Below are positions 5,545 through 19,053 of a DNA stretch of 64,000 nt, piece after piece. The position numbers were made by a program, and so were the translations under genes. Positions within the stretch are counted from its first letter, which is position 1. Each line of letters starts with the position of its first letter. Under the pieces are notes generated by a model that searched no databases, had not been told where the DNA came from, and was given only the letters and a program-made list of their open reading frames with translations. This DNA comes from a bacterium (GTDB lineage: Bacteria > B130-G9): NCBI GenBank assembly GCA_035527515.1, contig DATLAJ010000057.1, forward strand, positions 858-64,857. Direction: 5' to 3'.

Positions 5545-6747
5545 ATGAAACAAGAAAGCCCGTTCACACCGGGTAGCCCGGTGCCCTATGAGTTCTTCGT
5601 TGGTCGGCAAAAGGAGATTGAAGAGATCCTCACCTCTGTCAGGCGGGCTGCATCCGGGAGGCAGCAGAACGTTTTCTTGGTCGGCGAAAGAGGGATAGGT
5701 AAGAGCTCGCTTGCCCACTACGTGAGAGACCTGGCTGTCAAACAGTACAACTTCCTGACCGTTCACGTTCTCTTGGGCGGAGTAACTACTCTAGAAGAAC
5801 TTGTCCGGAGGGTGTTCGAGCGAATCGCTAATGAAGCTCATGCTCGACGCTGGTTCGAGAAGATTAGCGATGTATTCGGGGGCCGCATACAACAAGTGGG
5901 GTTTTTTGCCGTTTCCCTAGGTTTCAATGCACCCGAGAGTGATCTATCTCACCTGGTTAGAGATTTTCCGGAGGCTATCAACAAAATCAACGAGAAGATA
6001 AAAGATAAAATAAAGGGCATTCTTGTCGTTCTGGACGACATAAACGGGATTTGCAAGAAGGACGATTTCGCAAATTGGTACAAAAGCTGTGTGGACCACA
6101 TAGCGCTCCATTATAGGGGTTTCCCCGTGCTCATCATGCCGGTCGCGATACCGGAGATCAGACTCAGGCTAGGGGAACAACAGCCTTCGCTTATGAGAGT
6201 TTTCAAGGTGGTGGAGATAGAAGGACTCTCTGATGATGAGGTGAGAGCCTTTTTAACGAGAGCATTTGAGAGTGTCGGCGTCAAGGCATCCAGCGAAGTG
6301 ATTGGGGTGATGGTCTCCTATTCAGGTGGGCTACCGATTGTCATGCAGGAGATCGGCGACGCCGTATTCACGGCGAACAAGGATGATCTCATAGACGAAG
6401 ACGACTCAATAAAGGGACTGATGACCGCCGCCGAGACAATGGGGCAGAAGTATCTCGAGCCGAGGGTCTATCAAGCAATTCGTAGCAAGCGTTATCGCTC
6501 AATCTTGCGAAAACTGGGGAGCCTGCGTCCCTTGGCCCATTTCAAGAAAGCAGAGATTCAAAGTAAGCTGAATGTAGATGAGAAGAAGGTTCTCCATAAC
6601 TTTCTGAGAAGGATGAGAGAATTAGGCGTCGTTCTTCAGGATAAGGAAAGGGAACGAGGCTGGTATAAGTTCACGAACCCTCTTTATCCGCTTTACATCT
6701 CGATGGAAGGAATCCGCTACCGCGAGCGCCCCCGGAATAGGAGATAA
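5545..6747 (+). CDS. P-loop NTPase (AAA+ / archaeal-type ATPase-like) with a C-terminal winged-helix-like region.
   Basis: Walker A is LVGERGIGKSSLAHYV and Walker B-like is ILVVLDDINGI. The gene is visibly AT-richer than its neighbours, and a GGAG RBS lies upstream. Confidence 0.5.
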   Translation: MKQESPFTPGSPVPYEFFVGRQKEIEEILTSVRRAASGRQQNVFLVGERGIGKSSLAHYVRDLAVKQYNFLTVHVLLGGVTTLEELVRRVFERIANEAHARRWFEKISDVFGGRIQQVGFFAVSLGFNAPESDLSHLVRDFPEAINKINEKIKDKIKGILVVLDDINGICKKDDFANWYKSCVDHIALHYRGFPVLIMPVAIPEIRLRLGEQQPSLMRVFKVVEIEGLSDDEVRAFLTRAFESVGVKASSEVIGVMVSYSGGLPIVMQEIGDAVFTANKDDLIDEDDSIKGLMTAAETMGQKYLEPRVYQAIRSKRYRSILRKLGSLRPLAHFKKAEIQSKLNVDEKKVLHNFLRRMRELGVVLQDKERERGWYKFTNPLYPLYISMEGIRYRERPRNRR

Positions 6748-6907
6748 TAGAGCAAAATGTCCATCACAGAGACACAGAGAGCACAGAGAAGAACCTAGCA
6801 GATCATGCAGCTGGCATCATGTTCTCTGAGCCTTTTGCGTTCATTAGTGGCGGCGCTCTCTTTCCTCTCTGCGCCCCTGTGGCGCAGGCTCAGAAATTGA
6901 AGGCATC

Positions 6908-7219
6908 TTGACTGAGGCGGCGAGAACGGGGTATAACCGAGGCGTGGAAGTCAGCGACGTCAGGGTTTATCCGTTCGAGTCTAAAGAGGGAGCGAGCCAG
7001 GTTCACGCCTACGCGGATGTAACCTTTGACGGGGAGCTCTTGGTCAAGGGCTTCAAGGTGGTGATCAAGCCCAATGGGGCGCTGTTCGTGGGCTATCCCT
7101 CCGCGAGGCAGCAGGGCGGCGAGTTTGTGCCGACCGTGGCCGCGCTTTCGCCCGAGCTGAGGAGCAAGATACGCGAGGCTGTCGTGGCCAAGTACAGGGA
7201 GTATTTTCCGAAGGAGTAG
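6908..7219 (+). CDS. spoVG: SpoVG family protein.
   Basis: The sequence DVRVYPFE...HAYADVTFDGELLVKGFKVVIKPNGALFVGYPSARQQGGEFVPTVAALSPELRSKIREAVVAKY matches the conserved SpoVG core (ITLD..FVIHDIRVI.G.NGLFVAMPS.R...GEF.DI.HPI....R..I). Confidence 0.8.
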   Translation: MTEAARTGYNRGVEVSDVRVYPFESKEGASQVHAYADVTFDGELLVKGFKVVIKPNGALFVGYPSARQQGGEFVPTVAALSPELRSKIREAVVAKYREYFPKE

Positions 7220-7297
7220 GCAATGCGCTGGCGCAGGCTAACGTCGAAAACAGATTGTGGGACGAGGTTTTAAGCACGGCTTGGAGGGTGAGGTGCC

Positions 7298-7666
7298 ATG
7301 TTCGAGTTGACCGTCAGGAGCTCGTTTGCGGCGGCCCATCGATTGCGGGAATACGACGGCAAGTGCGAGAACCTGCACGGGCATAACTGGGTGGTCGAGG
7401 TGCGGGTGCGGGCAGAATCGCTGAACGACATTGGGCTTGCGATAGACTTCAAGGACCTCAAGGCTGCGACTGACGCGGTTTTGGACCGCTTGGACCACAA
7501 GCTCCTAAACGATGTTGAGCCGTTCAAAGAGATGAACCCCTCAAGCGAGAACATCGCTCGGTGGATTTTTGAGTCTCTGAAGGAGCGTTTAGGCGGCCTA
7601 GTCGTCGGCCTGCGAGAGGTCTCGGTCTGGGAGAACCCCAATTGCTGCGCTACGTATTGGGAATGA
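7298..7666 (+). CDS. queD: 6-carboxy-5,6,7,8-tetrahydropterin synthase (QueD / PTPS family).
   Basis: It carries the CENLHGHNW zinc-binding CxxxHGH signature and the FAAAHRL motif. The length of 122 aa is typical. Confidence 0.8.
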   Translation: MFELTVRSSFAAAHRLREYDGKCENLHGHNWVVEVRVRAESLNDIGLAIDFKDLKAATDAVLDRLDHKLLNDVEPFKEMNPSSENIARWIFESLKERLGGLVVGLREVSVWENPNCCATYWE

Positions 7667-7667
7667 G

Positions 7668-8777
7668 ATGATGCACGAGGGCGCCCGCGAGTTGGACGAA
7701 AGGGCGATCCAGAGCTTCTTTTTCCGCTACCCTCAGATAGTCGAGTCGTTCCTTGTGAAAAAGCACCTGCCAGTCTCGGGCCTTGAGGCCACAAGGTGCG
7801 AAGACGCGTGCGCCTCAGGTAGAGTTGACCTTGCCTTCAGACAGAGAGCGAGCAACTCGATGGTTCTATTGGAGCTGCAATTGGGCCGCGCCAACAGGGA
7901 CCACTACGACCGGCTCGCCTCGTACGTCAACGACTACTCGGAGCGCTTCTCGTTCTCGCGGGTGATCGGCGTTCACTTTGCCGAGGCGTTTCCCAAAACG
8001 CTCCCTCGTTACAGCCCTCCGCTTTACAGGGTTCGTTTTGCCCCGAGCAAAGTGGCGAGACTGGCCGAGGAGCTCCAGGCCCAGGAGGAGAGGCTCTTGG
8101 GACTGAGTTGCCCAAAGCCGCCCGTCTCTGCCTTTGCCAGACTCTCATACCTCAACGGGTTCTTCGCATTTATGAGGAAGCGCACGTTCGCCACGTTCCG
8201 CGAGGTGGTCGAAAACGTTGCGAACCTCGCCAAGAACCCTCGTCAGATACGCAATCCCGAATACCGCGCGCGGCTCTGGGTGAAGTTTGGGGAGAGTTTT
8301 GGGCTTCTGATTCGGCAAGAGGGCAGGATAGTGCTGACGGAGCTGGGGAGGGCATACGCCGCCTCGCTGGACGCCTCGTTCCCGTGGGCGCTCACGGCTC
8401 GGCAGAGGCGGATACTGATCGCCGGGCTCTCTGCCGCTCGCTGCACAAACGGCCACAAGTTTGGCATTTTCTGCATCCTGAAAGCTGCGGAGCAATCGGA
8501 GGAGAGGGCGCTCGAGACGGCTGATTCGCAGATGCAGAGCTTCGTGTCGTTCTGCCGCTCCAGTCGCCGATGGGTGAGAGTCTCGCAGCGTGCGTCGTTT
8601 GTTTGGTATGGCAATTACGCTAGGGAGTTGGGGCTTTGCCCGGACAGCGGACTTTCGGGCGCAAGGCTTCAGCTGACCGCGTTCGGGCGAGAGGTCCTTG
8701 CGCTATTCTCGAGGCAGTTTGCGGCGTTTGAGATGGAGCGGCGATTGCTTTTGAGAGGGACAGGCGGTATCCTTTGA
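7668..8777 (+). CDS. Hypothetical protein with a possible PD-(D/E)xK-like nuclease fold at its N-terminus.
   Basis: This is a 369-aa ORF in the coding frame directly upstream of the array. The N-terminal GRVDLAF...VLLELQLG pattern loosely resembles restriction-endonuclease-like motifs. I could assign no confident family. Confidence 0.3.
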   Translation: MMHEGARELDERAIQSFFFRYPQIVESFLVKKHLPVSGLEATRCEDACASGRVDLAFRQRASNSMVLLELQLGRANRDHYDRLASYVNDYSERFSFSRVIGVHFAEAFPKTLPRYSPPLYRVRFAPSKVARLAEELQAQEERLLGLSCPKPPVSAFARLSYLNGFFAFMRKRTFATFREVVENVANLAKNPRQIRNPEYRARLWVKFGESFGLLIRQEGRIVLTELGRAYAASLDASFPWALTARQRRILIAGLSAARCTNGHKFGIFCILKAAEQSEERALETADSQMQSFVSFCRSSRRWVRVSQRASFVWYGNYARELGLCPDSGLSGARLQLTAFGREVLALFSRQFAAFEMERRLLLRGTGGIL

Positions 8778-8794
8778 GTAGGATGAGGCACAAC

Positions 8795-10048
8795 ATGTGG
8801 CTCTTAATAACGACTAAGACGACGCATTACTGGTGGGCCAACTACAGCTGCGCTGACGGGAAGAATTTCATGTTGGCGCTGGGTTTGCAGCGAGTTCTGC
8901 GCGTGGACGGCACCATCGGCGAATGGGACCCCGGAACGAGTCCGGAGCATCCGGACGGGGACCGCGAGTGGAAGGAGCACAAGCTGCTTCACTGCAAGGC
9001 CACCTCGAACTTCAGGGAGTACGCGCAGGGGAACAGGGGGCATGAGCGATTTAGGATTTCAGTCTCACAAACCGCGCGGCAGATCGAGTTCAAGGTCAGA
9101 CTTGAGTCTGTTTGGCCGCAGCCGATTCCCTTCCCGGTGCCGGTGCCTTTCCCGCAGCCAGTCCCTTTGCCGGAGCCGCCGGTCATACCGGTCACGCCGG
9201 TCACCCCAGTTACGCCGGTCACACCGGTCACACCAGTCACGCCGGTCGTGGAGCCGGGTGCGGAGCGGGTACCCACGGGGGTTCTGAGGCCGACTCCGTT
9301 AAAAGGGAAGTTCAAGGTCTATCTTCGGTCAAGAGCCCTGAATAGATACAAGCCTAGGCTCCCACGAGACGGGAACAGGGACATATATATACACGGACAG
9401 CCGCTCTGGGAACGGGAGGCCGAGGCGGCCTTTGAGCAACCGCCTGAGGCAACGATCAAGCTCCGTGATGTGCCGATCGGGTGGGCAGTGCTCGAGGTGT
9501 GGGCAGAAGATGACCACGGGCATGATCTCAGCAAGAAGAAGACGATGCAGGTGTTTGTGTATCCTGAGATCTGGTGCAGGCGTGCGCTGGTTCCGGTATT
9601 TGGTCCCCATCTTGGGTATCGGACGAGGTGGGTGCTGCTGCCGCCGAGGGCGGAGCTGCCGCCGGTCACGCCGTTGCCGGAAGGTCCGCAGCCGCTGGTG
9701 GAGCCGATTGTCGAGCCGATACTCCCCGACGAGAAGGGCGTCTATCACATCCGCGCCGCCCTCTGGAAGCAGTCCGACGGCTACTTCGTTGTCGGTAATC
9801 CTGAAGACCGCTACGACCCCAGCAAGATCAAGGACTACAAAGTCCAATCCGACTTCAAAGTCGATGAGCAGAGGTTGACCCCGGAAGACCAACCACTTAT
9901 ATCTTGCGGGCCCTGGCAGACGGGTACAGAGGACTCGCGTTGCGCTCTTCCGGAACACGAAAGCGAACGAATAGACGTCATTGTTCTGGAGCCTGCCGAG
10001 GTAAAAGCGCTCACTGACGAGGTGCTGCCCATTCAGAAGCTGAAATAA
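8795..10048 (+). CDS. Array gene A1, full length. It has a conserved N-terminal domain, a Pro-rich (PFPVPVPF / (PVT)6) linker, and a conserved C-terminal module with a Cys-bounded variable loop.
   Basis: ATG at 8795 is where homology with copy A2 begins (caacatgtggctcttaataacg). The stop is 4 nt before the RBS of B1. The C-terminal 170 aa are shared with the downstream cassettes A3', A4' and A5'. Confidence 0.65.
   Translation: MWLLITTKTTHYWWANYSCADGKNFMLALGLQRVLRVDGTIGEWDPGTSPEHPDGDREWKEHKLLHCKATSNFREYAQGNRGHERFRISVSQTARQIEFKVRLESVWPQPIPFPVPVPFPQPVPLPEPPVIPVTPVTPVTPVTPVTPVTPVVEPGAERVPTGVLRPTPLKGKFKVYLRSRALNRYKPRLPRDGNRDIYIHGQPLWEREAEAAFEQPPEATIKLRDVPIGWAVLEVWAEDDHGHDLSKKKTMQVFVYPEIWCRRALVPVFGPHLGYRTRWVLLPPRAELPPVTPLPEGPQPLVEPIVEPILPDEKGVYHIRAALWKQSDGYFVVGNPEDRYDPSKIKDYKVQSDFKVDEQRLTPEDQPLISCGPWQTGTEDSRCALPEHESERIDVIVLEPAEVKALTDEVLPIQKLK
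9178..9249 (+). repeat. In-frame 9-bp tandem repeat (ccggtcacg)n, about 7 units, encoding (PVT)n in A1.
   Basis: The repeat is read directly from the sequence and is absent from A2. Confidence 0.8.
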
Positions 10049-10058
10049 GGAGGTGGAA

Positions 10059-11441
10059 ATGACTTGGCTGCGACTGGCGATGGTCGTTCTGTTGTCCGCG
10101 GTATTTGCGTTGACGTCTTGCGCCGTAGGGCAAGCGGCTGATTATCCCTGGGTCTATTACTTCGAGAGGCCGGACTTCCCGCAGATACACTGTGCCTTCG
10201 CGGATACGGACGGGAGCGTGGTTGTCTCTACGGGAGACTGGCTTGACACTGGGTATGATTGGGTGACCGGGGATATCGTGTACTACTACCGCTCAGCGGG
10301 ACTGTATCGGATCATTTGCGGGACTGTTGAACCTATTGAGTGCCCTGCGAATACCTTTGTTCTCGACGCGGCCGTCGATTCAGAAGGCACGACTTGGCTG
10401 CTTATTGCGCATGGGCGTAATGGATATGTCGAGACCGGCAGTTTGGCCGGTCCGACTTGCGCAGACACGCTCGGGTCCGCTGTCGGTTATCGGAATTTCG
10501 GACTTTACCTCGAGAACTACAGGTTTGCGCGCCTCGAAGGGGCTACAGTGATTGAGGATAAGCAGATAACGGAGGCAGTGCCGACGACCCCTATCACAAT
10601 GTGTTGCGACCCGTGGGGGAGGGTGTATGTTTTCAGTTGGCGGTGGTCGGACAATAGGGATATTGAGGAGAGAAGGAGCTTTGTTTCTTGGTGGTCGGGC
10701 GGCAATCCGGATGACTTACACGTCTCCGAAATCTCGAACATCCTCCATGGCGCAAACATGGATTACTATGGGGCTCGTTATCCCGCCTTCGGGCCGGACG
10801 GTCTGGCCTACTTCGTTGTGGGGAACGCGTGGGACTTCGCAGCCTCCACAGAATACGCGGTCCTATGCCTTGACCCTAAAACTCAGTCTTGGGAGGTCTA
10901 CGACGAACAGGTCTGCAGCTTGCTAGGCTGCGCAATACGCTACTTCTGCGTGGATTCAATGAACGTCAAGTGGTTCGGGACAGAAGACGGGCTGGTTCGG
11001 TTTGATGGCCAGAGCTGGTCTCGGTACACAACGGGGAACACTGGGCTTCCTCACAATCTAGTGCGGCAAATTCAATACGATCAGGCCGAGGGAGTGTATT
11101 ATGTTGTCACGCAGGCCGACCCACAGTATCGGACAGCCTTCAGCGTTCTCTCCCCCGGAGGCCGACTTGTTGGGGGTCCTTTGTCGTCCCCGCGGGAAGG
11201 GCTCCCTTGGTACCTACCCCAGATTTACAGGGATGTGAGGGGAACGTGGTGGCTGCTGTTGCCTCCCAACTACAGGGCGACAACAACACCATACGATGTG
11301 TATGCGTACGACGGCCGGGGCGTGTTTCGTTGGGACAGCAGGGTCTCGTTCGATAGGCCAGACGTCCACATCGGATTCATCGGGAGCGACGCAGAGGGAC
11401 GCGACTTCTGTGTGGGGCCTACATGCGTGATGATCTGGTAG
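10059..11441 (+). CDS. Array gene B1. It is a beta-propeller lipoprotein (Reg_prop-like repeats) ending in CVMIW.
   Basis: An aaggagg RBS lies 6 nt upstream of ATG. The lipobox reads ALTSC. Motifs DYPWVYYF, NVKWFGTEDGLVRFDGQSW..TGNTGLPHN.VRQIQYD resemble two-component-regulator propeller repeats. The C-terminus is FCVGPTCVMIW. Confidence 0.65.
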   Translation: MTWLRLAMVVLLSAVFALTSCAVGQAADYPWVYYFERPDFPQIHCAFADTDGSVVVSTGDWLDTGYDWVTGDIVYYYRSAGLYRIICGTVEPIECPANTFVLDAAVDSEGTTWLLIAHGRNGYVETGSLAGPTCADTLGSAVGYRNFGLYLENYRFARLEGATVIEDKQITEAVPTTPITMCCDPWGRVYVFSWRWSDNRDIEERRSFVSWWSGGNPDDLHVSEISNILHGANMDYYGARYPAFGPDGLAYFVVGNAWDFAASTEYAVLCLDPKTQSWEVYDEQVCSLLGCAIRYFCVDSMNVKWFGTEDGLVRFDGQSWSRYTTGNTGLPHNLVRQIQYDQAEGVYYVVTQADPQYRTAFSVLSPGGRLVGGPLSSPREGLPWYLPQIYRDVRGTWWLLLPPNYRATTTPYDVYAYDGRGVFRWDSRVSFDRPDVHIGFIGSDAEGRDFCVGPTCVMIW

Positions 11442-11731
11442 GAGGATTGCTGGCCTTGGCTGAGAAGATTGACGTGAGTCGCGTGGTGACCGCGATCGTG
11501 TCGCGGATTCCGGAGTATCTTAGGACGTGCGAGGTTTGCCTTCGCACGCAGGACGACGTCACGGCTCAGGAGTCCACGCTGCTCTATGGGTCGAAGTTCT
11601 GGGCCGTGATGAATGACACCGACCGCGCTGGCAACATAACTGGGAAGCAGCGGCTGTTCCTGGAGATCGGCACGCCTCTTCAGTATTTCCTTGCGCACGA
11701 TAACGAGAGCGGCCAGCTTCAGAAGTTCAAC

Positions 11732-13129
11732 ATGTGGCTCTTAATAACGACTAAGACGACGCATTACTGGTGGGCCAACTACAGCTGCGCTGACGGGAAG
11801 AATTTCATGTTGGCGATGGGTTTTCAGCGAGTTCTGCGCGTGGACGGCACCATCGGCGAATGGGACCCCGGAACGAGTCCGGAGCATCCGGACGGGGACC
11901 GCGAGTGGAAGGAGCACAAGCTGCTTCACTGCAAGGCCACCTCGGACTTCAGGGAGTATGCACGGGGGAACAGGGGGCATGAGCGATTCAGGATTTCAGT
12001 CTCACAAACGGCGAGGGAGATCGAGTTCAAGGTCAGACTTGAGTCTATTTGGCCGCAGCCGATCCCCTTCCCGGTGCCAGTGCCTTTCCCGCAGCCGGTC
12101 CCTTTCCCGCAGCCGGTCCCTTTCCCGCAGCCGGTCCCTTTCCCGCAGCCGGTCCCTTTCCCACAGCCGGTCCCTTTGCCGCAGCCGGTCCCTTTCCCAC
12201 AGCCGGTCCCTTTCCCACAGCCGGTCCCTTTGCCGCAGCCGACCCCTTTGCTGGAGCCGACCCCTTTGCTGGAGCCGCCGGTCACGCCGGTCGTGGAGCC
12301 GGGTGGGGAGCGGGTACCCACGGGGGTCCTGAGGCCGACTCCGTTAAAGGGGAAGTTCAAGGTCTATCTTCGGTCAAGAGCCCTGAATAGATACAAGCCT
12401 GGACTCTCCCCGGACGGGAATAGGGACATATATAGACATGGACAGCCGCTCTGGGAGCGGGAGGCGGAGGCCCCCTTTGAGCAACCGCCTGAGGCAACGA
12501 TCAAGCTCCGTGATGTGCCGGTTGGTTGGGCAGTGCTCGAGGTGTGGGCGGAGGATGACCACGGGCATGATCTCAGCAAGAAGAAGACGATGCAGGTGTT
12601 TGTGTATCCTGAGATCTGGTGCAGGCGTGCGCTGGTTCCGGTACTTGGTCCCCATCTTGGGTATCGGACGAGGTGGTTTTTGCTGCCGCCGAGGGCGGAG
12701 CTGCCGCCCGTGACGCCGCTGCCGGAAGGTCCGCAGCCGCTTTTGGAGCCGATTGTGCAGCCGATACTCCCCGACGAGAAGGGCGGCTATCACATCCGCG
12801 CCGCCCTCTGGAAGCAGTCCGACGGCTACTTCGTTGTCGGTCCTGGGGGCTCCCGCTACGACCCCGCAACAATCACCGACTACAACGTCCAATCCGAATT
12901 CAGCGTCGATGCGCAAGAAGTGAGAGACTCGGAGGGCAATTTCTTGGGCTATTGCGGGCCGAACAATGAGGACCCAGTGACCGGCCAGCCGTCAGATAGG
13001 TGTGCAAACACTCTCCCGCAACACGAGAGCGAGCGAGTAGATGTGATCCAGCTCAAGCCCCTGGAAGTGAAAAGCCCCTTTCCAACGATCGTGTCCGATG
13101 AAAAGCTGATACAAGGAGGGAAGAAATGA
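11732..13129 (+). CDS. Array gene A2, full length. Its Pro-rich linker is expanded to ~12 PQPVPF repeats.
   Basis: ATG at 11732 is where homology with A1 begins. The reading frame is open upstream to 11423, but that stretch has no similarity to A1. An 18-bp in-frame tandem repeat runs 12085-12280. The stop TGA overlaps the ATG of B2. Confidence 0.6.
   Translation: MWLLITTKTTHYWWANYSCADGKNFMLAMGFQRVLRVDGTIGEWDPGTSPEHPDGDREWKEHKLLHCKATSDFREYARGNRGHERFRISVSQTAREIEFKVRLESIWPQPIPFPVPVPFPQPVPFPQPVPFPQPVPFPQPVPFPQPVPLPQPVPFPQPVPFPQPVPLPQPTPLLEPTPLLEPPVTPVVEPGGERVPTGVLRPTPLKGKFKVYLRSRALNRYKPGLSPDGNRDIYRHGQPLWEREAEAPFEQPPEATIKLRDVPVGWAVLEVWAEDDHGHDLSKKKTMQVFVYPEIWCRRALVPVLGPHLGYRTRWFLLPPRAELPPVTPLPEGPQPLLEPIVQPILPDEKGGYHIRAALWKQSDGYFVVGPGGSRYDPATITDYNVQSEFSVDAQEVRDSEGNFLGYCGPNNEDPVTGQPSDRCANTLPQHESERVDVIQLKPLEVKSPFPTIVSDEKLIQGGKK
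12085..12280 (+). repeat. In-frame 18-bp tandem repeat (ccgcagccggtccctttc)n, about 9 copies plus 2 variant units, encoding (PQPVPF)n.
   Basis: The repeat is read directly from the sequence. A1 has only ~2 units at the equivalent place. Confidence 0.85.
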
Positions 13130-14457
13130 AAAAACGGTCGCTGGTCATGCTGATTGCGCTGTGCGCGGTGATCGGTTCGCCGCCTTTTGGGCTGTCCCAG
13201 CAAGTAGATTACCCCTGGGTGCATTATTTCGACCGTCAGATAGGTTGCGTCTATGCCGACGCGGAATGGAACGTGCTCGTGTCCACCGGGGACTGGAACT
13301 ACACCACCGGCGACGGTACTGGGGCCATCACGTATTGGTATTTGTCCGACGGAGTGTTCAAGATTTGGGAGGGCGAGATTGACAAGATCGAGTTCCCCGC
13401 CGGCACCTTGGTCTTGGGTTTTGCGACCGATTCGGGGGGAACTACATGGGCGCTCTTCGGAGAAGGTCAGAACCACACGCAACACGCGGAGGATCTGCCC
13501 TGGAAGTGTCAGGCGACGGTCTTGGACTCCGTTTCCCGATCTCCGCTCATTGCCAATCCCAGGTTAGCACGCATCCAGGGAACAGGCATTGTCGTGGATA
13601 GTGAGCTGACCGCTTCGATCCCGGGGAAGCCGGTTGCCATCGTTTCGGACGTTTGGGGCACAGTCTTTGTGATCAGTTACCAGGTCAGTTACCGGGACGT
13701 TGACTCGGGTGGTGCGAGGTACTTCGTTTCTTGGTGGCCTGGGGCTGAGCCGGGCTCGCTCCGTATTCAAGAGGTCCCCCATGTTTTTGACTACGTCATC
13801 ACTTCGCGTCGACCGTCTTTTGGACCAGACGGCCTAATGTACCTGCTCGCGAGCAACACGGAGGGGATCTACTACGCTCGGTCTCCCTCTGGGGTGCTGG
13901 CGTTGGACCCCCAGGATGAGGAATGGTGTGTCTATTATGGAGGCGATAGGGCGATCTATTGCGTTTATGTGGATCAGTTTAACGTGAAGTGGTTCGGGAC
14001 TCAGGACGGCCTCTTCCGGTTGGATGCCGGAAACTGGGCCTCCTGGACGACCGCGAACAGCGGACTGCCCTATAACGGCGTGCGACAGATAACCTATGAC
14101 GAGATCGACAACGTGTATTACGTGGTCTCACAGTATTGCGACAGCGCAGTTGGAGACTGCTACGGAGCTTTCGCGGTGCTTTCCGGTGATGGGCAACGTG
14201 TCGGGCCACCGCTGAACCTCCCCGACTGCACCGATCTGTGGATACCGAAGGCGCACCGATCCGGAGCCACTTGGTACTTGATGCCTTATGTCATCTACGA
14301 CGTGATCTACTCTTATGATCACAGAAACGTACGAGCTTGGCACCTCCGGGATTGGGTCAGCGTTGGCGCCGACACGTTCGACTTATCCATCGGCCCGGTC
14401 GGGGACCGGCGCACCTTTCTTGCCCTGCACCTGTGCAGCTGCGTTATGATCTGGTAA
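13126..14457 (+). CDS. Array gene B2. It is a beta-propeller secreted protein (Reg_prop-like) ending in CVMIW.
   Basis: It starts with the signal peptide MKKRSLVMLIALCAVIG. The DYPWVHYF, NVKWFGTQDGLFRLD and LPYNGVRQITYDEIDNVYYVVS motifs are conserved with B1, B3 and B4. The C-terminus is LHLCSCVMIW. Confidence 0.65.
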   Translation: MKKRSLVMLIALCAVIGSPPFGLSQQVDYPWVHYFDRQIGCVYADAEWNVLVSTGDWNYTTGDGTGAITYWYLSDGVFKIWEGEIDKIEFPAGTLVLGFATDSGGTTWALFGEGQNHTQHAEDLPWKCQATVLDSVSRSPLIANPRLARIQGTGIVVDSELTASIPGKPVAIVSDVWGTVFVISYQVSYRDVDSGGARYFVSWWPGAEPGSLRIQEVPHVFDYVITSRRPSFGPDGLMYLLASNTEGIYYARSPSGVLALDPQDEEWCVYYGGDRAIYCVYVDQFNVKWFGTQDGLFRLDAGNWASWTTANSGLPYNGVRQITYDEIDNVYYVVSQYCDSAVGDCYGAFAVLSGDGQRVGPPLNLPDCTDLWIPKAHRSGATWYLMPYVIYDVIYSYDHRNVRAWHLRDWVSVGADTFDLSIGPVGDRRTFLALHLCSCVMIW

Positions 14458-14460
14458 CCG

Positions 14461-15015
14461 ATGAGCATCACGCAGGTGTTTGTGTATCCGGAGATACGAT
14501 GTGCAAAAAAGCTGGTATTCGAGCGTGATCCGCTTGGACTGGGATTTATCAGGATGAGGTGGAAGTTGCTGCCGCCGACAGAGCTGGTGCCGCCGGTGAC
14601 GCCGCTGCCGGAGGGTCCGCAGCCGGAGGTGGGACCGATTGTGCAGCCGATACTCCCCGACGAGAAGGGCGGCTATCACATCCGCGCCGCGCTCTGGAAG
14701 CAGTCCGACGGCTACTTCGTTGTCGGTCCTGGCGGCTCCCGCTACGACCCGGAAACCATCACCGGCTACAACGTCCAATCCGACTTCAGCGTCGATGAGC
14801 AAAAACTCGGCCGAATTGAGGATTCGGACAAGATCTGGCGGATGCTGTACTGCGGGCCAAACAACATGGATCAGAGATTTCACCCTCCGGAGCTTTCCAC
14901 CGACTGCGTCAACGCCATTCCTATATATGAAAGCGAGCGGATAGACGTTATTACATTGAAGCTTGAAGTAAAACCGCTCATTGACGAGGGCCTGCCCGTT
15001 AAGAAGCCGAAATAA
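14461..15015 (+). CDS. Array cassette A3'. It is a 5'-truncated copy of gene A containing the C-terminal module only (184 aa).
   Basis: ATG lies 4 nt after the B2 stop. It begins MSITQVFVYPEI, homologous to the internal KTMQVFVYPEIW of A1 and A2. It has its own variant of the CGP...C loop, and the gene-A N-domain and Pro linker are absent. Confidence 0.55.
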   Translation: MSITQVFVYPEIRCAKKLVFERDPLGLGFIRMRWKLLPPTELVPPVTPLPEGPQPEVGPIVQPILPDEKGGYHIRAALWKQSDGYFVVGPGGSRYDPETITGYNVQSDFSVDEQKLGRIEDSDKIWRMLYCGPNNMDQRFHPPELSTDCVNAIPIYESERIDVITLKLEVKPLIDEGLPVKKPK

Positions 15016-15041
15016 GGAGGTCGAAGACGACTAGGCTGGAA

Positions 15042-16421
15042 ATGGCCATTCTGGTTCTGCTGTCCGCGGTATTTGCGTTGACATCTTGCACTGTAGCGCA
15101 AGCAGGTGATTACCCCTGGGTGCATTACTTCGATACTCCCAGCTGCGCGGATCATCCTTCGATCCACTTCGCGTTCCCGGATGGCGAGGGCAATGTCATC
15201 GTGTCAACGGGTGACTGGGTCCCCGATTACTGGCCTAATGAGAAATACTATGACTACCGCCCGGGAGCTTTATACCGAGTGAATGAGGGGGTCAAGCAGA
15301 CAATCGACGCACCCGAGAACACGTATGTGCTTGACGCTGCCGTGGACGGTCAAGGCAGGACCTGGATTATATCTGCCGAGGCGAGCAGTTACCACGTGTA
15401 TTACCGGAACGGCCTGTGCGTTGAGGATAAGGGGTACCCTCTTCCCCAGAGTTTCGGCTATGGGCGATACCGATTCCCGGAGTCTCCCCTTGCCGAGGCC
15501 TACGGCGGTCTTGACAAGCCAGCCTTGGGAACGCTCCGGGCTGGGCGCTTTGTCCGACTTCCTGAAGTGACCGAGGCGATTCCCGGGACACCACGTGGGA
15601 TTTGCGTTGACGCTCAGGGTCACGTCTTCTTGATGACCTCGGAATGGGATCCTTGGGAGTTCACCGCATACTTCGTCTCGTGGTGGGGAGCCGAAGGGCC
15701 TGAATCACTTCGAACTCTCGACCTGTGGCAGATCATTCCGAACTCCTGGCTTCGAGATTATCCGCAGTTTGCTCCGGATGGCGTCGCATATCTTCTCATC
15801 GTGTATAATGCGGGCGGTCCGGGGGCTGGTTACGACTACGCCCTTCTCCGCCTCGATCCTAAGACCGGCGAGTATTGTGTTTACCGGAATACCGATTATG
15901 CGTATCTTGACTCCGAAGTTCGATGCTTCTACATAGACCCAATGGGCATCATCTGGCTCGGCACCGAAGATGGCCTTGTTCGTTTCGATGGGCAGACGTT
16001 GAGTCGTTGGACGACTGAAAACAGCGGCCTTCCCTATAATGCCGTCAGGCAAATCGTGTACGATGAGATCGATGACGTCTATTATGTGATCTCAGAAAAG
16101 GATATCGGTTGGGACACCTCTATGCTATTCAGCATGCTGTCACCGGTGGGCGACGCGATAGGTGCCCCTTTTATCCTACCTACGGTCGCAAACCGACTCT
16201 TTCAATTCTCCAAGGTGTTTCGTGACGGCAGAGGCGTGTTCTGGCTCTGTCCCTATGAGGCGAGCAGGGCTTACTCCTATGACCATGAACGAGTCATGCA
16301 GTGGTACGCAGCCGACTGGATGGAGCTCGTGAGCAACGTCCACTACGTCGGCTCGACTGCTTCAGGCCGGACATTCTGCGTAGCGGGAGGATACGGCGCC
16401 TCGTGCGTGATGATCTGGTAG
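15042..16421 (+). CDS. Array gene B3. It is a beta-propeller lipoprotein ending in CVMIW.
   Basis: It shares the signal-peptide motif AILVLLSAVFALTSC with B4. The ATG of B4 reads ACG here, so the start shifts to 15042. Reg_prop-like motifs are present and the C-terminus is GASCVMIW. Confidence 0.6.
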   Translation: MAILVLLSAVFALTSCTVAQAGDYPWVHYFDTPSCADHPSIHFAFPDGEGNVIVSTGDWVPDYWPNEKYYDYRPGALYRVNEGVKQTIDAPENTYVLDAAVDGQGRTWIISAEASSYHVYYRNGLCVEDKGYPLPQSFGYGRYRFPESPLAEAYGGLDKPALGTLRAGRFVRLPEVTEAIPGTPRGICVDAQGHVFLMTSEWDPWEFTAYFVSWWGAEGPESLRTLDLWQIIPNSWLRDYPQFAPDGVAYLLIVYNAGGPGAGYDYALLRLDPKTGEYCVYRNTDYAYLDSEVRCFYIDPMGIIWLGTEDGLVRFDGQTLSRWTTENSGLPYNAVRQIVYDEIDDVYYVISEKDIGWDTSMLFSMLSPVGDAIGAPFILPTVANRLFQFSKVFRDGRGVFWLCPYEASRAYSYDHERVMQWYAADWMELVSNVHYVGSTASGRTFCVAGGYGASCVMIW

Positions 16422-16435
16422 CGGAGAAGAAGAGG

Positions 16436-16963
16436 ATGCAGGTGCTTGTGTACCCGCAGATTAGGTGCAGGCGTGCGCTAGTTCCGGTATTTGGTCCTCA
16501 TCTTGGGTGGCGCACGAGGTGGGTTCTGCTGCCGCCGAGAGAGAAGGTGCCGCCCGTGACGCCGCTGCCGGAGGGTCCGCATCCGGTGGTGGGGCCGATT
16601 GTGCACCCGACACCCCCGGACGAGGAGGGCGTCACCACAATCGAGGCCGCGCTCTGGAAGCAGTCCGACGGCTACTTCAAGGGCGATAGATACGACCCCG
16701 CCGGCATCACTGGCTACTGGTACCAGAGGTTTCACTTCAGCGTCGATGAGGAATGGCTGAATGCGGATGCACACAGAGACCGTGGTGATCCCTTGATCGC
16801 GTGCGGGCCAAATGACGGCGAACCGGGGGGGGAAGGCCTGTGCGGCCTTCCGGAGCATGAGAGCGAGCGGATAGACGTTATTACCCTCAAGCGCGCCCCG
16901 ATAATAGCCCTCACTGACGAGGCGCAGCCCGTTAAGAAGCTGAAAAAAGGCGGTCGAAGATGA
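16436..16963 (+). CDS. Array cassette A4'. It is a 5'-truncated gene A C-terminal module (175 aa).
   Basis: ATG at 16436 lies 15 nt after the B3 stop. It begins MQVLVYPQIRCRRALVPVFGPHLGWRTRW and carries a variant CGPNDGEPGGEGLC loop. Its stop overlaps the ATG of B4. Confidence 0.55.
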   Translation: MQVLVYPQIRCRRALVPVFGPHLGWRTRWVLLPPREKVPPVTPLPEGPHPVVGPIVHPTPPDEEGVTTIEAALWKQSDGYFKGDRYDPAGITGYWYQRFHFSVDEEWLNADAHRDRGDPLIACGPNDGEPGGEGLCGLPEHESERIDVITLKRAPIIALTDEAQPVKKLKKGGRR

Positions 16964-18327
16964 CTAGGCTGGAAATGGCCATTCTGGTTCTGCTGTCCGC
17001 GGTATTTGCGTTGACATCTTGCACTGTAGCGCAAGCAGGTGATTACCCCTGGGTGCATTACTTCAAGCCGCCTGATATGCGGCAAGTCCACTGCGCGTTT
17101 GCTGACGCCGAGGGGAACGTGATCGCTGCTACTGGTGACTGGAATTACAGCACATACAACTGGGGCACCGGGGATACCACCTATTGGTATCTGTCCGATG
17201 GGATATTCCAGATTCGCGAGGGAGACATAGAGGCCGTGCAGTGCCCGGCGTCCACATTCGTCCTGGACTGCGCGACAGATTCTGCCGGAAGGACGTGGGT
17301 GTTGTTCGCCGAAGGTCATGATTATAGGCAACACGTGTGGGATCCCTGGCGGTCTGCTGCGCTGAGAGGTCCTTGTGCGGCATCCGACGTGGGCTATAGG
17401 CACTTTCGCTGGCCGACCGGTATGTGGTCGTATCTAACCGACTATAGGCTGGCTACAATCGAGGAAGGCGGCTTGCGAGAGCAGCGTGAGCTATTGGACA
17501 GAGTGCCGGCCGAACCGGTCGTAATGGCAGCCGACCCTCAGGGCCGGATATACGTCATGAGTTGCGAGGACTGTGACGACCGCATTGCTGATTTCTTCAT
17601 TTCTTGGTGGTCTGGACATGACTCCAGTTGCATACGTACAATATGTTTGTGGGATCTTATTCCAGATTCCTGGGCCGCTGACTATCCTAAGTTCGGTCCA
17701 GACGATCTTGTGTACTTCCTCATAAGGATCGCGGCCGGAGATGCGAACTCTAGGTTCGCCGTGCTCTGCCTTGATCCAGAGACTGAGGAGTATGAGATTT
17801 GGAGGGCCTCCGATTACGCATTTCTCGATTCGGAGGTCTATTGCTTCTACGTGGACCAGTTCAACGTTAAGTGGTTTGGGACCGACGATGGCTTGGTTCG
17901 GTTTGACGGCGAGACCTGGATGCGCTTCGCGTCGGAAAACAGCCCACTGCCTTACGATCGGATTAAACAGATCCAATATGATGAGATCGACTATGTCTAT
18001 TACATCGTCTCGGCAGCAGAGGATTGGAGAGAACATCCAGACGACTACGTGGCGCTCAGTGTATTCTCCCCAACGGGGCGGGCGATATATGAGCCATCGT
18101 ATATGCCCGGGGGACCGTTGCTGCGGCGCGGATCAGGCAACATATGGTATCTCATGCCGGGCTGGGATGATGATCTAGTTTACGTCTATGATCACGTGAG
18201 ACTCAGCGAATTCAGCTTGCGAGATTGGGTGGACGTCCCGGAATACTCCGCTTGGGATTTCGCCATATCTCCTACGACCTTAGGGCAGACATTTTTTGCT
18301 AATGACTACTGCGTAATGATCTGGTAG
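16960..18327 (+). CDS. Array gene B4. It is a beta-propeller lipoprotein ending in CVMIW.
   Basis: It starts MTRLEMAILVLLSAVFALTSC. About 110 nt of its 5' end are near-identical to B3. Reg_prop-like motifs are present and the C-terminus is ANDYCVMIW. Confidence 0.6.
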   Translation: MTRLEMAILVLLSAVFALTSCTVAQAGDYPWVHYFKPPDMRQVHCAFADAEGNVIAATGDWNYSTYNWGTGDTTYWYLSDGIFQIREGDIEAVQCPASTFVLDCATDSAGRTWVLFAEGHDYRQHVWDPWRSAALRGPCAASDVGYRHFRWPTGMWSYLTDYRLATIEEGGLREQRELLDRVPAEPVVMAADPQGRIYVMSCEDCDDRIADFFISWWSGHDSSCIRTICLWDLIPDSWAADYPKFGPDDLVYFLIRIAAGDANSRFAVLCLDPETEEYEIWRASDYAFLDSEVYCFYVDQFNVKWFGTDDGLVRFDGETWMRFASENSPLPYDRIKQIQYDEIDYVYYIVSAAEDWREHPDDYVALSVFSPTGRAIYEPSYMPGGPLLRRGSGNIWYLMPGWDDDLVYVYDHVRLSEFSLRDWVDVPEYSAWDFAISPTTLGQTFFANDYCVMIW

Positions 18328-18335
18328 CGAAGACG

Positions 18336-18650
18336 ATGCAGGTGTTTGTGTATCCTGAGATCTGGTGCAGGCGTGCGCTGGTTCCGGTATTTGGTCCCCA
18401 TCTTGGGTATCGGACGAGGTGGGTGCTGCTGCCGCCGAGAGAGAAGGTGCCGCCCGTGACGCCGCTGCCGGAGGGTCCGCATCCGGTGGTGGGGCCGATT
18501 GTGCACCCGACACCCCCGGACGAGGAGGGCGTCACCACAATCGAGGCCGCGCTTTGGAAGCAGTCCGACGGCTACTTCAAGGGCGATAGATACGACCCCG
18601 CCCTGGTTGCCCGGCATCCTACGGATCAGCACATTGTTCGGCTCAATTGA
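18336..18650 (+). pseudogene. Array cassette A5'. It is a terminal, doubly truncated remnant of the gene A C-terminal module.
   Basis: The first ~105 nt are 100% identical to A1 at 9541-9650. Homology to A4' ends abruptly at 18603 after GDRYDPA, and the frame then runs into unrelated sequence and stops at 18650. The Cys loop and the ESERIDVI end are missing. Confidence 0.5.
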
Positions 18651-19053
18651 CACGTTTACCACAGAACTATGCCATACGTTAATCAATGAGGCCAAAGAGA
18701 GCTCCTGCGGTAGTTGGCGATGCGTAATCCTTGACCTGGAGGCCGAGGTGATGTAAATACACCATGTGTTTTTCGGGCAGCGATTGAGGCAAACTTCTAC
18801 GGATTGGTCACGAACAGGAACGAGCGTTCAAAGCGGGAATCTCTCACTTCTTTTCGCCCCGTTTCCGCTGGCGCAAACTCCTCCCAAGAAAAGACTTGAA
18901 CGCTGTGAGAAATAAGGTATGTTAGAACAGGCTGTATCGACAGCAGATTGATAAGTTTACATATTCTGAGGCTATATAGATGGGCGAACCGCCCTGAGTC
19001 GCGGAGCTGCGACTGATGGGTGGAGTGTCTCGTTATTTTATGGAGGACCGCAA

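Follow-up and report, generated by a model that had tools for sequence, protein, structure and literature searches.

A Cys-bracketed variable loop in the C-terminal module of a polymorphic two-gene cassette family from uncultured bacteria

We identified four tandem copies of a two-gene cassette (genes A and B) in a 64,000-nucleotide stretch of bacterial DNA, which is referred to as a whole as the window. The cassettes are followed by a terminal A fragment and lie between genes for a 369-amino acid protein and an 1846-amino acid protein. The features of the locus are:

6908–7219, SpoVG, upstream of the left-flank gene
7298–7666, PTPS/QueD-like gene, upstream of the left-flank gene
7668–8777, + strand, left flank: 369-aa protein with a weak NucS_C-like match, kept at every syntenic locus
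8774–10048, + strand, A1, 424 aa; likely start ATG at 8795 (MWLLITTK)
9545–9826, + strand, constant 5' part of the A1 module (MQVFVYPE..RYDP)
9827–10045, + strand, variable tail of A1, with the pre-loop at 9866–9904
9905–9943, + strand, Cys-bracketed loop of A1, translated as CGPWQTGTEDSRC; type I
10053–11441, + strand, B1, 462 aa; predicted signal peptide with lipobox-like LTSC, then a Reg_prop-type beta-propeller; ends CVMIW
11423–13129, + strand, A2, 568 aa; expanded PVPFPQ repeat
12590–12871, + strand, constant 5' part of the A2 module
12872–13126, + strand, variable tail of A2
12953–13003, + strand, Cys-bracketed loop of A2, translated as CGPNNEDPVTGQPSDRC; type II
13126–14457, + strand, B2, 443 aa; start overlaps the A2 stop
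14461–15015, + strand, A3', 184 aa; C-terminal module alone, starting 4 nt past the B2 stop
14851–14907, + strand, Cys-bracketed loop of A3', translated as CGPNNMDQRFHPPELSTDC
15042–16421, + strand, B3, 459 aa
16436–16963, + strand, A4', 175 aa from the conserved Met of MQVLVYPQ; C-terminal module alone
16802–16843, + strand, Cys-bracketed loop of A4', translated as CGPNDGEPGGEGLC; type IV (xxxxPGGxxx)
16960–18327, + strand, B4, 455 aa; start overlaps the A4' stop
18336–18605, + strand, A5'', terminal fragment; constant 5' part alone, ending at RYDPA, before the loop
19054–24594, + strand, right flank: 1846-aa protein with beta-helix and PQQ-like propeller domains, kept in the window and at the related loci L001 and L002

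The same flanking genes enclose one cassette in L001 and two in L002, and individual genomes carry between one and four. The remainder of the window consists of housekeeping genes, with no secretion-system genes among them, and a scan for promoters and terminators from 6700 to 19200 returned nothing above the shuffled background. The A/B cassette was found only in a few uncultured bacteria that are known only from metagenome assemblies, and relatives include Candidatus Coatesbacteria MAGs. One related Coatesbacteria contig encodes LptD, and that relative is therefore a diderm.

The A1 protein consists of an N-terminal domain, a proline-rich linker, a beta-sandwich, a further proline-rich linker, and a C-terminal knob that bears the loop. 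The N-terminal extension of A2 is real coding sequence, as VVTAIVSRIPEYLRTCEVCL is conserved in L002, P0015 and P0023. A3', A4' and A5'' do not have the N-terminal half of A. A5'' is 95% identical to A4' at the DNA level, and its breakpoint recurs in L001, L002, L003, L006, L007 and L010; the terminal A fragment stops at RYDPA(G) in seven loci. No N-terminal hydrophobic segment is present in A1, A2, A3', A4', P0001 or P0010, a 1338-aa homologue from locus L011 (maximum 12-residue Kyte-Doolittle value at most 1.6 in the first 40 amino acids). Sequence searches of Pfam, NCBIfam, PHROG, PADLOC and the PDB returned no match for A, its sub-domains or P0010. The 945-aa N-terminus of P0010 used as a query returned only P0010 itself, and the window contains no full-length gene with the ~900-aa P0010-type N-terminus. 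An AlphaFold2 model of A1 residues 178–424, built from an 18-sequence alignment, has a mean pLDDT of 64.5; its usable part is the beta-sandwich (model residues 1–117), and the pre-loop and loop (model residues 181–218) are at a pLDDT of ~40. A Foldseek search of this model against the PDB gave only generic Ig-like matches, all at E > 0.4.

Immediately 3' of A lies the B gene, which co-varies with the A tail; the A stop and B start codons overlap. From its sequence and modeled fold, B is predicted to be a Sec-exported, often lipobox-bearing beta-propeller of the Reg_prop type: a hydrophobic N-terminus is present, unlike in A, and a lipobox is frequent. Pfam family PF07494 scores 33.2 bits in B3, above its cut-off of 20.4, and falls below the cut-off in B4 (20.3 bits) and B1 (16.9 bits); B2 has no match at E <= 0.1. 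A B profile matches PDB entry 3v9f at E 4e-15 and also matches 4a2l. The AlphaFold2 model of B is all-beta (pLDDT 80), and its top Foldseek matches are the periplasmic domains of BT4663, BT4673 and BT3049 (E 3e-10 to 8e-8). These Bacteroides hybrid two-component sensors are the closest match of B in both sequence and fold. However, B consists of one propeller carrying a signal peptide or lipobox and contains no Y_Y_Y domain, transmembrane segment, kinase or regulator domain. B1 has a variable loop of its own at residues 128–146.

The cassette comprises the last 75–90 residues of A, which follow RYDP and include the pre-loop, the Cys loop, the ESERIDVI strand and a charged tail, together with the whole of the downstream B gene. 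Within the window, divergence steps up at RYDP: the 5' part of the module is 73–95% identical in DNA (dS 0.13–0.5) and the tail 53–65% (dS 0.8–1.3), while the B genes are ~50% identical with dS saturated. Each cassette is bracketed on the left by the 5' part of the A module and on the right by its copy or by A5'', and these brackets are homogenized within a genome. The constant part tracks the genome, with 93% identity between window cassettes 1 and 2 (w1 and w2), 95% between w4 and w5, 97% between the two L011 copies (L011a and L011b), and 57% between w1 and L011a. The tail and B track the type: w1 and L011a are 68% identical in the tail and 69% in B, compared with 53% and 44% for w1 and w2. 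The variable parts are old, as synonymous sites are saturated between cassettes and both loop and B types recur in different genomes.

The original prediction described a hypervariable loop between two cysteines, and its four loop sequences agree exactly with the + strand translation (4/4). All four fall within homologous C-terminal modules, those of ORFs 8774–10048, 11423–13129, 14461–15015 and 16301/16436–16963. A fifth A copy, the fragment A5'', had been overlooked. In an alignment of the 23 A tails from the window, related MAGs and metagenomes that reach this far, both Cys residues are present in every sequence and are separated by 8–18 residues. The first Cys is followed by G (20/23) and P (23/23). 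All 23 loop sequences are distinct despite the invariant Cys pair; since the copies are homologous, chance is not at issue in the resemblance. The loop is, as proposed, an indel-rich variable segment within the cassette-specific part of A. However, its length and sequence do not differ completely between copies. CGPN(N/D) opens three of the four loops in the window, the family as a whole has CGPNNEDP as its proximal-half consensus (N 14/23, N 15/23, E 12/22, P 14/22), and hypervariability is limited to the distal half (column entropy 2.2–3.2 bits, plus indels).

The flanks had also been considered invariant. This is correct for WKQSDGYF, which is identical in all four copies, but the 13–23 residues that follow VD(E/A)Q and lead up to the first Cys, here termed the pre-loop, vary like the loop (mean pairwise similarity 0.25 and 0.27, respectively). 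Similar variability is seen in the linker upstream of RYDP (0.26) and in the C-tail that follows ..IDVIxL (0.25). The strand following the loop, ESER(I/V)DVI, is nearly rather than strictly invariant because A2 has V. Among the residues of "HESER", H (14/22), the first E (15/22) and R (15/22) are not conserved, and the spacing is far too short for an ART-like R-S-ExE or an RNase-like H/E/R arrangement; both of these readings were dropped.

The loops sort into a few discrete types that recur in different genomes. Type I is shared by A1 and P0010 (CGPWDTGTVDSRC), type II by A2 and loci L001, L006 and L007 (CGPSNEDPLTGQPSDRC), and type IV by A4', L008 and P0013. Among loops of one type, strong purifying selection is evident from near-saturated synonymous divergence and few amino acid changes (w2 compared with L001a: pS 0.74, pN 0.06; w1 compared with L011a: pS 0.40, pN 0.12). 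High pS combined with low pN indicates that the loops are old, constrained alleles and not products of hypermutation. Whole-segment dN/dS between different cassettes (0.2–0.7) gives no sign of positive selection, although the loops cannot be aligned between types and so fall outside this comparison. Recombination breakpoints can lie immediately next to the loop. The pre-loop DNA of A3' and of the P0001 contig is ~97% identical while the loop itself is unrelated, and identity along the sequence runs from ~97% to ~40% and then to ~80%.

Loops that are more similar tend to precede more similar B proteins (Mantel r 0.37, p 0.0016, 14 pairs), and B identity likewise correlates with the pre-loop (r 0.45, p 0.0004) and the whole A tail (r 0.48, p 0.003); linkage alone would produce these correlations, because the A tail adjoins B. 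The pairing is not strict; loop type and B type correlate with exceptions. On the P0001 contig the start of a B4-type B follows a type III loop that is unlike the A4' loop, and in L009 the loop ahead of a B3-like B (51% identity with B3) has no relation to the A3' loop. The original prediction regarded the loop as the specificity determinant. The discrete shared types, the constraint within types and the correlation with B are consistent with such a role. However, the loop is not the sole determinant, because the pre-loop shows an equal or stronger correlation with B, and B is far more divergent between copies than A (42–44% compared with 61–63% identity).

The organization of the locus resembles orphan toxin-CT/immunity arrays such as CdiA-CT/CdiI, Rhs-CT/RhsI, MafB, and T7SS toxins with tandem immunity genes. 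In both cases a constant part with a variable C-terminus precedes a co-varying partner gene, downstream orphans retain a constant stretch with a different C-terminus and their own partner, and copy number varies between strains. The step in DNA identity at RYDP in the window, the truncated A3', A4' and A5'', and the mosaic P0001 contig conform to this arrangement. Published accounts of polymorphic toxin systems describe recombination through the constant region that the copies have in common (Zhang et al. 2012, PMC3482391; PMC9484751). There are also clear differences. No C-terminal toxin or pre-toxin domain is recognizable in A or P0010 by Pfam, NCBIfam, PADLOC, PHROG or PDB searches, and A1, A2 and P0010 contain no N-terminal trafficking or secretion domain (TPS, PAAR, VgrG, LXG or signal peptide). 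Classical polymorphic toxins swap unrelated toxin domains, whereas the A tails are homologous, with 40–70% identity to one another, and 75–90 amino acids long. The partner here is a 450-aa exported beta-propeller, and no secretion system is encoded nearby.

The absence of a hydrophobic N-terminus in A and its presence in B is also reminiscent of T6SS effectors that act in the periplasm and have exported or lipoprotein immunity partners (Tse1/Tsi1, Tle/Tli). In such systems the effector has no signal peptide, and its downstream partner has a signal peptide or lipobox (PMC13133936). However, we found no T6SS genes, no PAAR, VgrG or MIX marker, and no recognizable enzymatic domain in A. A further parallel concerns the scale of the variation. 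In the colicin E and pyocin S nuclease-immunity pairs and in Proteus IdsD/IdsE, homologous proteins carry cognate specificity in short variable patches, and discrete classes are kept in populations. Short variable patches and discrete types are likewise found in A/B, although the folds are unrelated, and binding is experimentally established in those systems but putative for A and B. A search of 2.9 million viral contigs found no relatives of A or B. A phage tail fibre with its chaperone (Mu S/U, R-pyocin Prf15/16) was rejected as a model given this result, the lack of PHROG matches, the signal peptide of B and the housekeeping genes that flank the array.

The loop had also been likened to the D-region of type IV pilins. 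The geometry is similar, as a hypervariable segment lies between two conserved Cys residues near the C-terminus (23/23 in A, a putative disulfide), and, as in Neisseria pilE/pilS, 5'-truncated copies occur downstream or elsewhere together with mosaic gene conversion (PMC3950515). However, the resemblance is an analogy only, since A has neither the prepilin leader (class III signal peptide) nor the hydrophobic alpha-1 helix (G/FTLIE-type) of a pilin, and no pilin Pfam domain matches it. It is rather unlikely that the array serves antigenic or phase variation, in which an expressed A gene would be converted from silent downstream cassettes with the loop as a minicassette between conserved Cys codons. 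The missing N-terminal halves of A3', A4' and A5'', the homogenized constant region, the breakpoint beside the loop in P0001 and the disulfide-bounded, hypervariable D-regions of pilins (PMC3950515) would all fit, but each cassette includes a complete, intact B (~450 codons) that has a separate signal peptide and an overlapping start, for which silent pilin copies have no equivalent. In addition, the types are ancient and constrained across genomes (pS up to 0.74), which speaks against high-rate de novo generation, no genome carries more than four cassettes, and host adaptive immunity as the selective agent is an unsupported assumption for uncultured organisms known only from metagenomes. Localized variability would be explained if a diversity-generating retroelement or a similar mechanism targeted the loop for hypermutation. 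We rejected the loop as such a target, and the probability of this mechanism is close to negligible: no YxDD reverse-transcriptase motif occurs in window ORFs of at least 200 aa, no template-like copy of any loop exists elsewhere in the window (best ungapped identity 53–67%), the loops differ in length whereas these elements substitute without inserting, and loop types are conserved across genomes.

The array might simply consist of ordinary tandem A-B paralogues in which a tolerant, indel-prone surface loop is mounted on two structural Cys residues and has no role in specificity. Extracellular domains commonly contain variable loops between conserved Cys residues, three further stretches of the A tail vary to the same degree, and overall dN/dS is below one everywhere (0.2–0.7). 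We nevertheless consider this explanation unlikely, because a neutral loop would differ within a type where synonymous sites have saturated, whereas the observed loops are nearly constant and a few types recur across genomes. Likewise, a cassette design explains better than simple duplication and drift why constant and variable parts meet sharply at RYDP and why the terminal fragment is conserved. That the two Cys residues bind metal in a cytoplasmic protein, for instance as part of a Zn site, and form no disulfide is improbable. A has no export signal, and a third Cys (VYPEIWC, 17/19 sequences) and a His (LPxH, 14/22) could contribute ligands. However, invariance is limited to the two loop Cys residues, several homologues have Y, T, L or another residue at the positions of the candidate third and fourth ligands, and the spacing between the Cys residues is variable (8–18). 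Proline-rich stalks and an Ig-like sandwich, as in A, are typical of extracytoplasmic proteins.

Our best reading of the locus is that A and B belong to a new family of polymorphic cassettes in which the loop serves as a type-specific recognition element, and which may possibly be effector-immunity-like in function. We put the chance of this reading, in which the Cys loop contributes to the part that defines the type of a cassette, at a little short of even. The two Cys residues most likely staple a loop on the surface of the small C-terminal knob that ends the proline-rich stalk, although an oxidizing compartment for A is an assumption given that A has no signal peptide and B has one. The loop and pre-loop would jointly form the type-specific recognition surface, for which the cognate B propeller is the most likely partner. 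The bracketing homology would allow cassettes and sub-segments such as the loop to be exchanged by homologous recombination or gene conversion, and cassette exchange may in turn produce the arrays of one, two or four at the same chromosomal site.

An effector acting in the periplasm together with an exported immunity protein would fit the cassette because A has no signal peptide, B is predicted to be exported, the genes overlap, and N-terminally truncated A'-B orphan pairs lie downstream. A more specific proposal, which we regard as possible but doubtful, is that A is a stalked protein that is not Sec-exported, with the stapled loop and pre-loop as an allele-specific key and the propeller lipoprotein B as the lock in immunity or self-recognition. 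This would be a new recognition system of a candidate phylum, with specificities spread by recombination of cassettes or sub-cassettes through the homogenized flanks.

The practical impact is limited for now, with approximately two dozen homologues in public data. Should our reading be wrong, the locus remains a clear example of constant segments that evolved in concert around variable alleles of great age. If it is correct, a Cys-bracketed loop of 10–20 residues and its neighboring stretch would be paired with a large propeller in a lineage without cultured members, providing a compact natural case of encoding and exchanging discrete recognition specificities and a small swappable element with which specificity could be probed by loop exchange. 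B would then be the first case of a beta-propeller serving as the immunity or recognition partner in a system of this kind, tied to a family without known relatives, and would widen the range of folds that serve as cognate partners in polymorphic cassette systems.

The region is a head-to-tail array of A genes and downstream B (propeller) genes, with four homologous C-terminal A modules on the forward strand and overlapping A/B stop and start codons.

Components of the A/B array (window coordinates, forward strand)
8774-10048, forward, A1, full length
10053-11441, forward, B1
11423-13129, forward, A2, full length
13126-14457, forward, B2
14461-15015, forward, A3', C-terminal module only
15042-16421, forward, B3
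16436-16963, forward, A4', C-terminal module only
16960-18327, forward, B4
18336-18605 (ORF to 18650), forward, A5'', fifth A fragment, after B4

The A5'' fragment was overlooked in the original prediction. It has 95% DNA identity to the start of A4', stops at RYDPA ahead of the loop, and is followed by unrelated sequence. RYDPA(G) is where the array-closing fragment stops, both here and in six related loci from MAGs or metagenomes (L001, L002, L003, L006, L007, L010), and the variable part of A starts at precisely this point. In those six loci the junction reads RYDPAG-ELFPM.. In L013 and L014 the closing fragment is broken at another point.

The four Cys-bounded segments reported earlier (9905-9943, 12953-13003, 14851-14907 and 16802-16843) translate exactly as described, and all lie in homologous C-terminal modules. 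We cut 23 A tails into segments for comparison. Both cysteines are present in 23/23, separated by 8-18 residues (most commonly 15), and the first is followed by G in 20/23 and P in 23/23. Within the protein, variability peaks in the distal half of the loop (mean pairwise similarity 0.18); the proximal half has the consensus CGPNNEDP. Mean pairwise similarity is 0.27 for the whole variable part of the loop, 0.25 for the pre-loop (the 13-23 residues between VD(E/A)Q and the first Cys), 0.26 for the linker before RYDP and 0.25 for the extreme C-tail, compared with 0.71 for WKQxDGYF, 0.84 for RYDP and 0.56 for ..ESERIDVIxL. The loop is thus real, with an invariant cysteine at either end. Three other patches are variable too, and the flank upstream of the loop lacks conservation. 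The original prediction of a hypervariable loop between invariant flanks was essentially right but overstated. An A sub-family (in L002, L013 and L014, and the homologous A proteins P0015, P0017 and P0026) has an acidic C-terminus with a conserved penultimate Cys (..DDGLCKD, ..DHDLCED, ..EDLCRD); tails of the window type are basic (..KKLK, ..GGKK).

The loops fall into discrete types that recur across genomes, with several singletons outside them.

Recurring loop types
Type I: WQTGTEDSR / WDTGTVDSR; A1, P0010
Type II: NNEDPVTGQPSDR-like; A2, L001, L002b, L014b, P0021
Type III: NNENEIDPEVD-like; L011b, P0020, P0001, P0022
Type IV: xxxxPGGxxx; A4', L008, P0013

The types are under constraint. 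Across the pre-loop and loop, same-type pairs from different genomes gave pS 0.74 and pN 0.06 (A2 and L001) and pS 0.40 and pN 0.12 (A1 and P0010). This excess of pS over pN indicates that the types are old and held by purifying selection, which speaks against neutral drift as well as any hypermutation device. A DGR origin of the loops is excluded, as loop lengths differ, the YxDD motif is absent from every window ORF of at least 200 aa, and no template copy was found for any loop.

DNA identity between window copies falls sharply at RYDP, from 73-95% in the 5' part of the A module (dS 0.13-0.5) to 53-65% in the A tail (dS 0.8-1.3) and about 50% in B (dS saturated). Within the window, B proteins are 42-44% identical, compared with 61-63% for A modules. 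The constant part follows the genome, with identities of 93% between the first and second A copies, 95% between the fourth and fifth and 97% between the two copies of L011, and only 57% between A1 and the first L011 copy. The tail and B follow the type: that same pair shares 68% in the tail and 69% in B, versus 53% and 44% for the first and second window copies. Together with the closing fragment, these patterns define the variable unit as the A tail plus B, with the loop in its variable half. Copies of one homogenised segment flank this unit on either side, an arrangement that would allow cassettes to be gained, lost and exchanged by homologous recombination.

The loop is also exchanged in mosaic fashion. 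Five sources can be distinguished in P0001: the constant part resembles that of A4', the pre-loop that of A3' and the C-tail that of A1, the loop is of type III, and B starts like B4. The DNA identity of P0001 to A3' is ~97% through the pre-loop, ~40% across the loop and ~80% afterwards, indicating that the loop is exchangeable on its own, which resembles a pilin minicassette.

Loop type is statistically associated with B type. In Mantel tests of tail-segment similarity against B identity for 14 A-tail/B pairs, r was 0.37 for the loop (p 0.0016), 0.45 for the pre-loop (p 0.0004), 0.34 for the post-RYDP segment (p 0.0046) and 0.29 for the C-tail (p 0.012). All three pairs with a common loop type are found among the three whose B proteins are closest (69, 65 and 51-57%). 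There are exceptions: in L009 a B3-like protein (51% identical to B3) lies behind an unrelated loop, and the P0001 contig has a B4-type start (55/57 mature residues identical) with a loop unlike that of A4'. Physical linkage by itself could produce the correlation between tail and B.

Several short sequences recur at gene junctions. All 15 B-gene copies in the window and related loci end in ATGATCTGGTRR (MIW plus stop; window 11430-11441, 14446-14457, 16410-16421 and 18316-18327), and the stop codon (TAG, TAA, TGA) and the preceding Cys/Val codons vary. The following A or A' frame begins within ATGATCTGGTRR or at most 15 nt away, MRDDLV.. being the same DNA in another frame. A similar string, CATGATCTCAGCAAGAAGAAGACGATGCAG, directly precedes MQVFVYPE in A1 and A2; these strings may be the scar of a founding duplication. 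A 36-nt stretch, CGCGTGGTGACCGCGATCGTGTCGCGGATTCCGGAG (encoding VVTAIVSRIPE), at 11480-11515 recurs with 0-1 base differences at L002 10001-10036 and 12137-12172. The genes around it are far more diverged, and it defines another class of B-to-A junction. L002 also carries a 33-codon A-module remnant (MNVLVYPEINCKYEDGRWW.., 7595-7693) ahead of its first A and a 42-codon B 3'-end remnant (..LMIW*, 9831-9959) between its first B and second A.

B has a hydrophobic signal sequence (with a lipobox-like LTSC in B1, B3 and B4), 9-13 cysteines and Reg_prop repeats, and is exported. The B1 model is all-beta (pLDDT 80, pTM 0.80), and the structures that match it best are the periplasmic propellers found in Bacteroides hybrid two-component sensors (E 3e-10 to 8e-8). 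The invariant ends DYPWVHYF and CVMIW probably close the propeller. Residues 128-146 of B1 (window 10434-10490) form its own indel-rich hypervariable loop (pLDDT 29-41); this stretch holds a Cys in 4/4 window copies (GPTCADT, WKCQAT, GLCVED, GPCAAS). The sole B gene of L001 has an in-frame TAG at 12441-12443 (GETWTR*TTENSGLPYN), where every other B protein has W, Y or F. L006 and L007 have this stop as well, which makes three assemblies in all, a MAG and two JGI metagenome contigs. The gene may be a pseudogene, or the stop a nonsense allele common to the three.

No hydrophobic N-terminus was found in A, which is without a Sec signal. A consists of an N-domain, a Pro-rich linker, a beta-sandwich (pLDDT 75-86), a second Pro-rich linker and a ~95-aa knob carrying the loop. 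The knob is poorly modelled (pLDDT 40-70, about 40 in the loop region), and Foldseek with the A model gave nothing significant. An 18-nt tandem repeat encoding PVPFPQ spans ~11 overlapping registers in A2 (12017-12304); in A1 (9080-9223) it is short and followed instead by a 9-nt PVT repeat, and in P0001, P0002 and P0010 the linker at this position is non-repetitive. This variation is a stalk length polymorphism. In L011, from another metagenome, a complete A makes up the last 430 residues of the 1338-aa P0010 (1386-5402). The 900-aa N-terminus of P0010 matches nothing in Pfam, PDB or PHROG and has no counterpart within the window. P0023 is the sole other homologue of this N-terminus, and two small ORFs upstream of P0010 have in common a repeated motif at the N-terminus, ITYD..T.TV.TGGS...PYTMA.L.

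Searches of Pfam, NCBIfam, PHROGs, PADLOC and PDB gave no match for A. A word-indexed search of 5.8 billion proteins returned two true A homologues, and 24 were recovered when 1.84 billion cluster representatives were searched exhaustively with a profile. Ten loci, all in uncultured bacteria, emerged from scanning one genome per species plus JGI metagenomes, and look-ups added six. An NCBI MAG with no label beyond 'bacterium' encodes a protein identical to B1. A Candidatus Coatesbacteria MAG has one full-length B homologue and is a diderm relative, since the same contig encodes LptD. No relatives of A or B were found in 2.9 million viral contigs.

The array occupies a fixed chromosomal site and varies in content. 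In the window, L001, L002 and L004 it comes after the same 369-aa gene with a weak NucS_C-like match; in the window and L004, SpoVG and a PTPS gene lie ahead of that gene. The same ~1850-aa beta-helix/PQQ protein follows the array in the window, L001 and L002. Between shared flanks there are four cassettes in the window, one in L001, L006 and L007, and two in L002. The remaining window encodes housekeeping functions (GatB, glycogen phosphorylase, Alr, PBP2, RodA, DnaE, glycosyltransferases). Upstream of the SpoVG-PTPS-NucS-like block, 5545-6747 encodes a 400-aa STAND/AAA_16-type ATPase with weak BrxD/SngB-like PADLOC hits; L004 lacks it at that position, so a connection with the array is unlikely.

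The proposal that the loop is the specificity determinant of A is partly supported by the recurrence of types, the constraint within them and the association with B. The Cys pair may staple an exposed loop, which together with the pre-loop would form an allele-specific surface whose partner may be the cognate B. A and B could then act in the manner of an effector and its exported immunity protein, or of a self-recognition pair. Taken together, the signal-less A, the exported (often lipoprotein) B and the truncated A'+B pairs downstream match what is seen at periplasm-acting effector/immunity loci such as Tse/Tsi and Tle/Tli. Orphan CT/immunity arrays show this pattern as well (PMC3482391). Unlike in these families, the A tails here are homologous and short, no toxin or trafficking domain was found in A, and no secretion system in the window. 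With several defining features thus missing, we regard A/B as working like such a system and not as a member of it. The A and B families are new, and their organisation is a variation on an already known arrangement.
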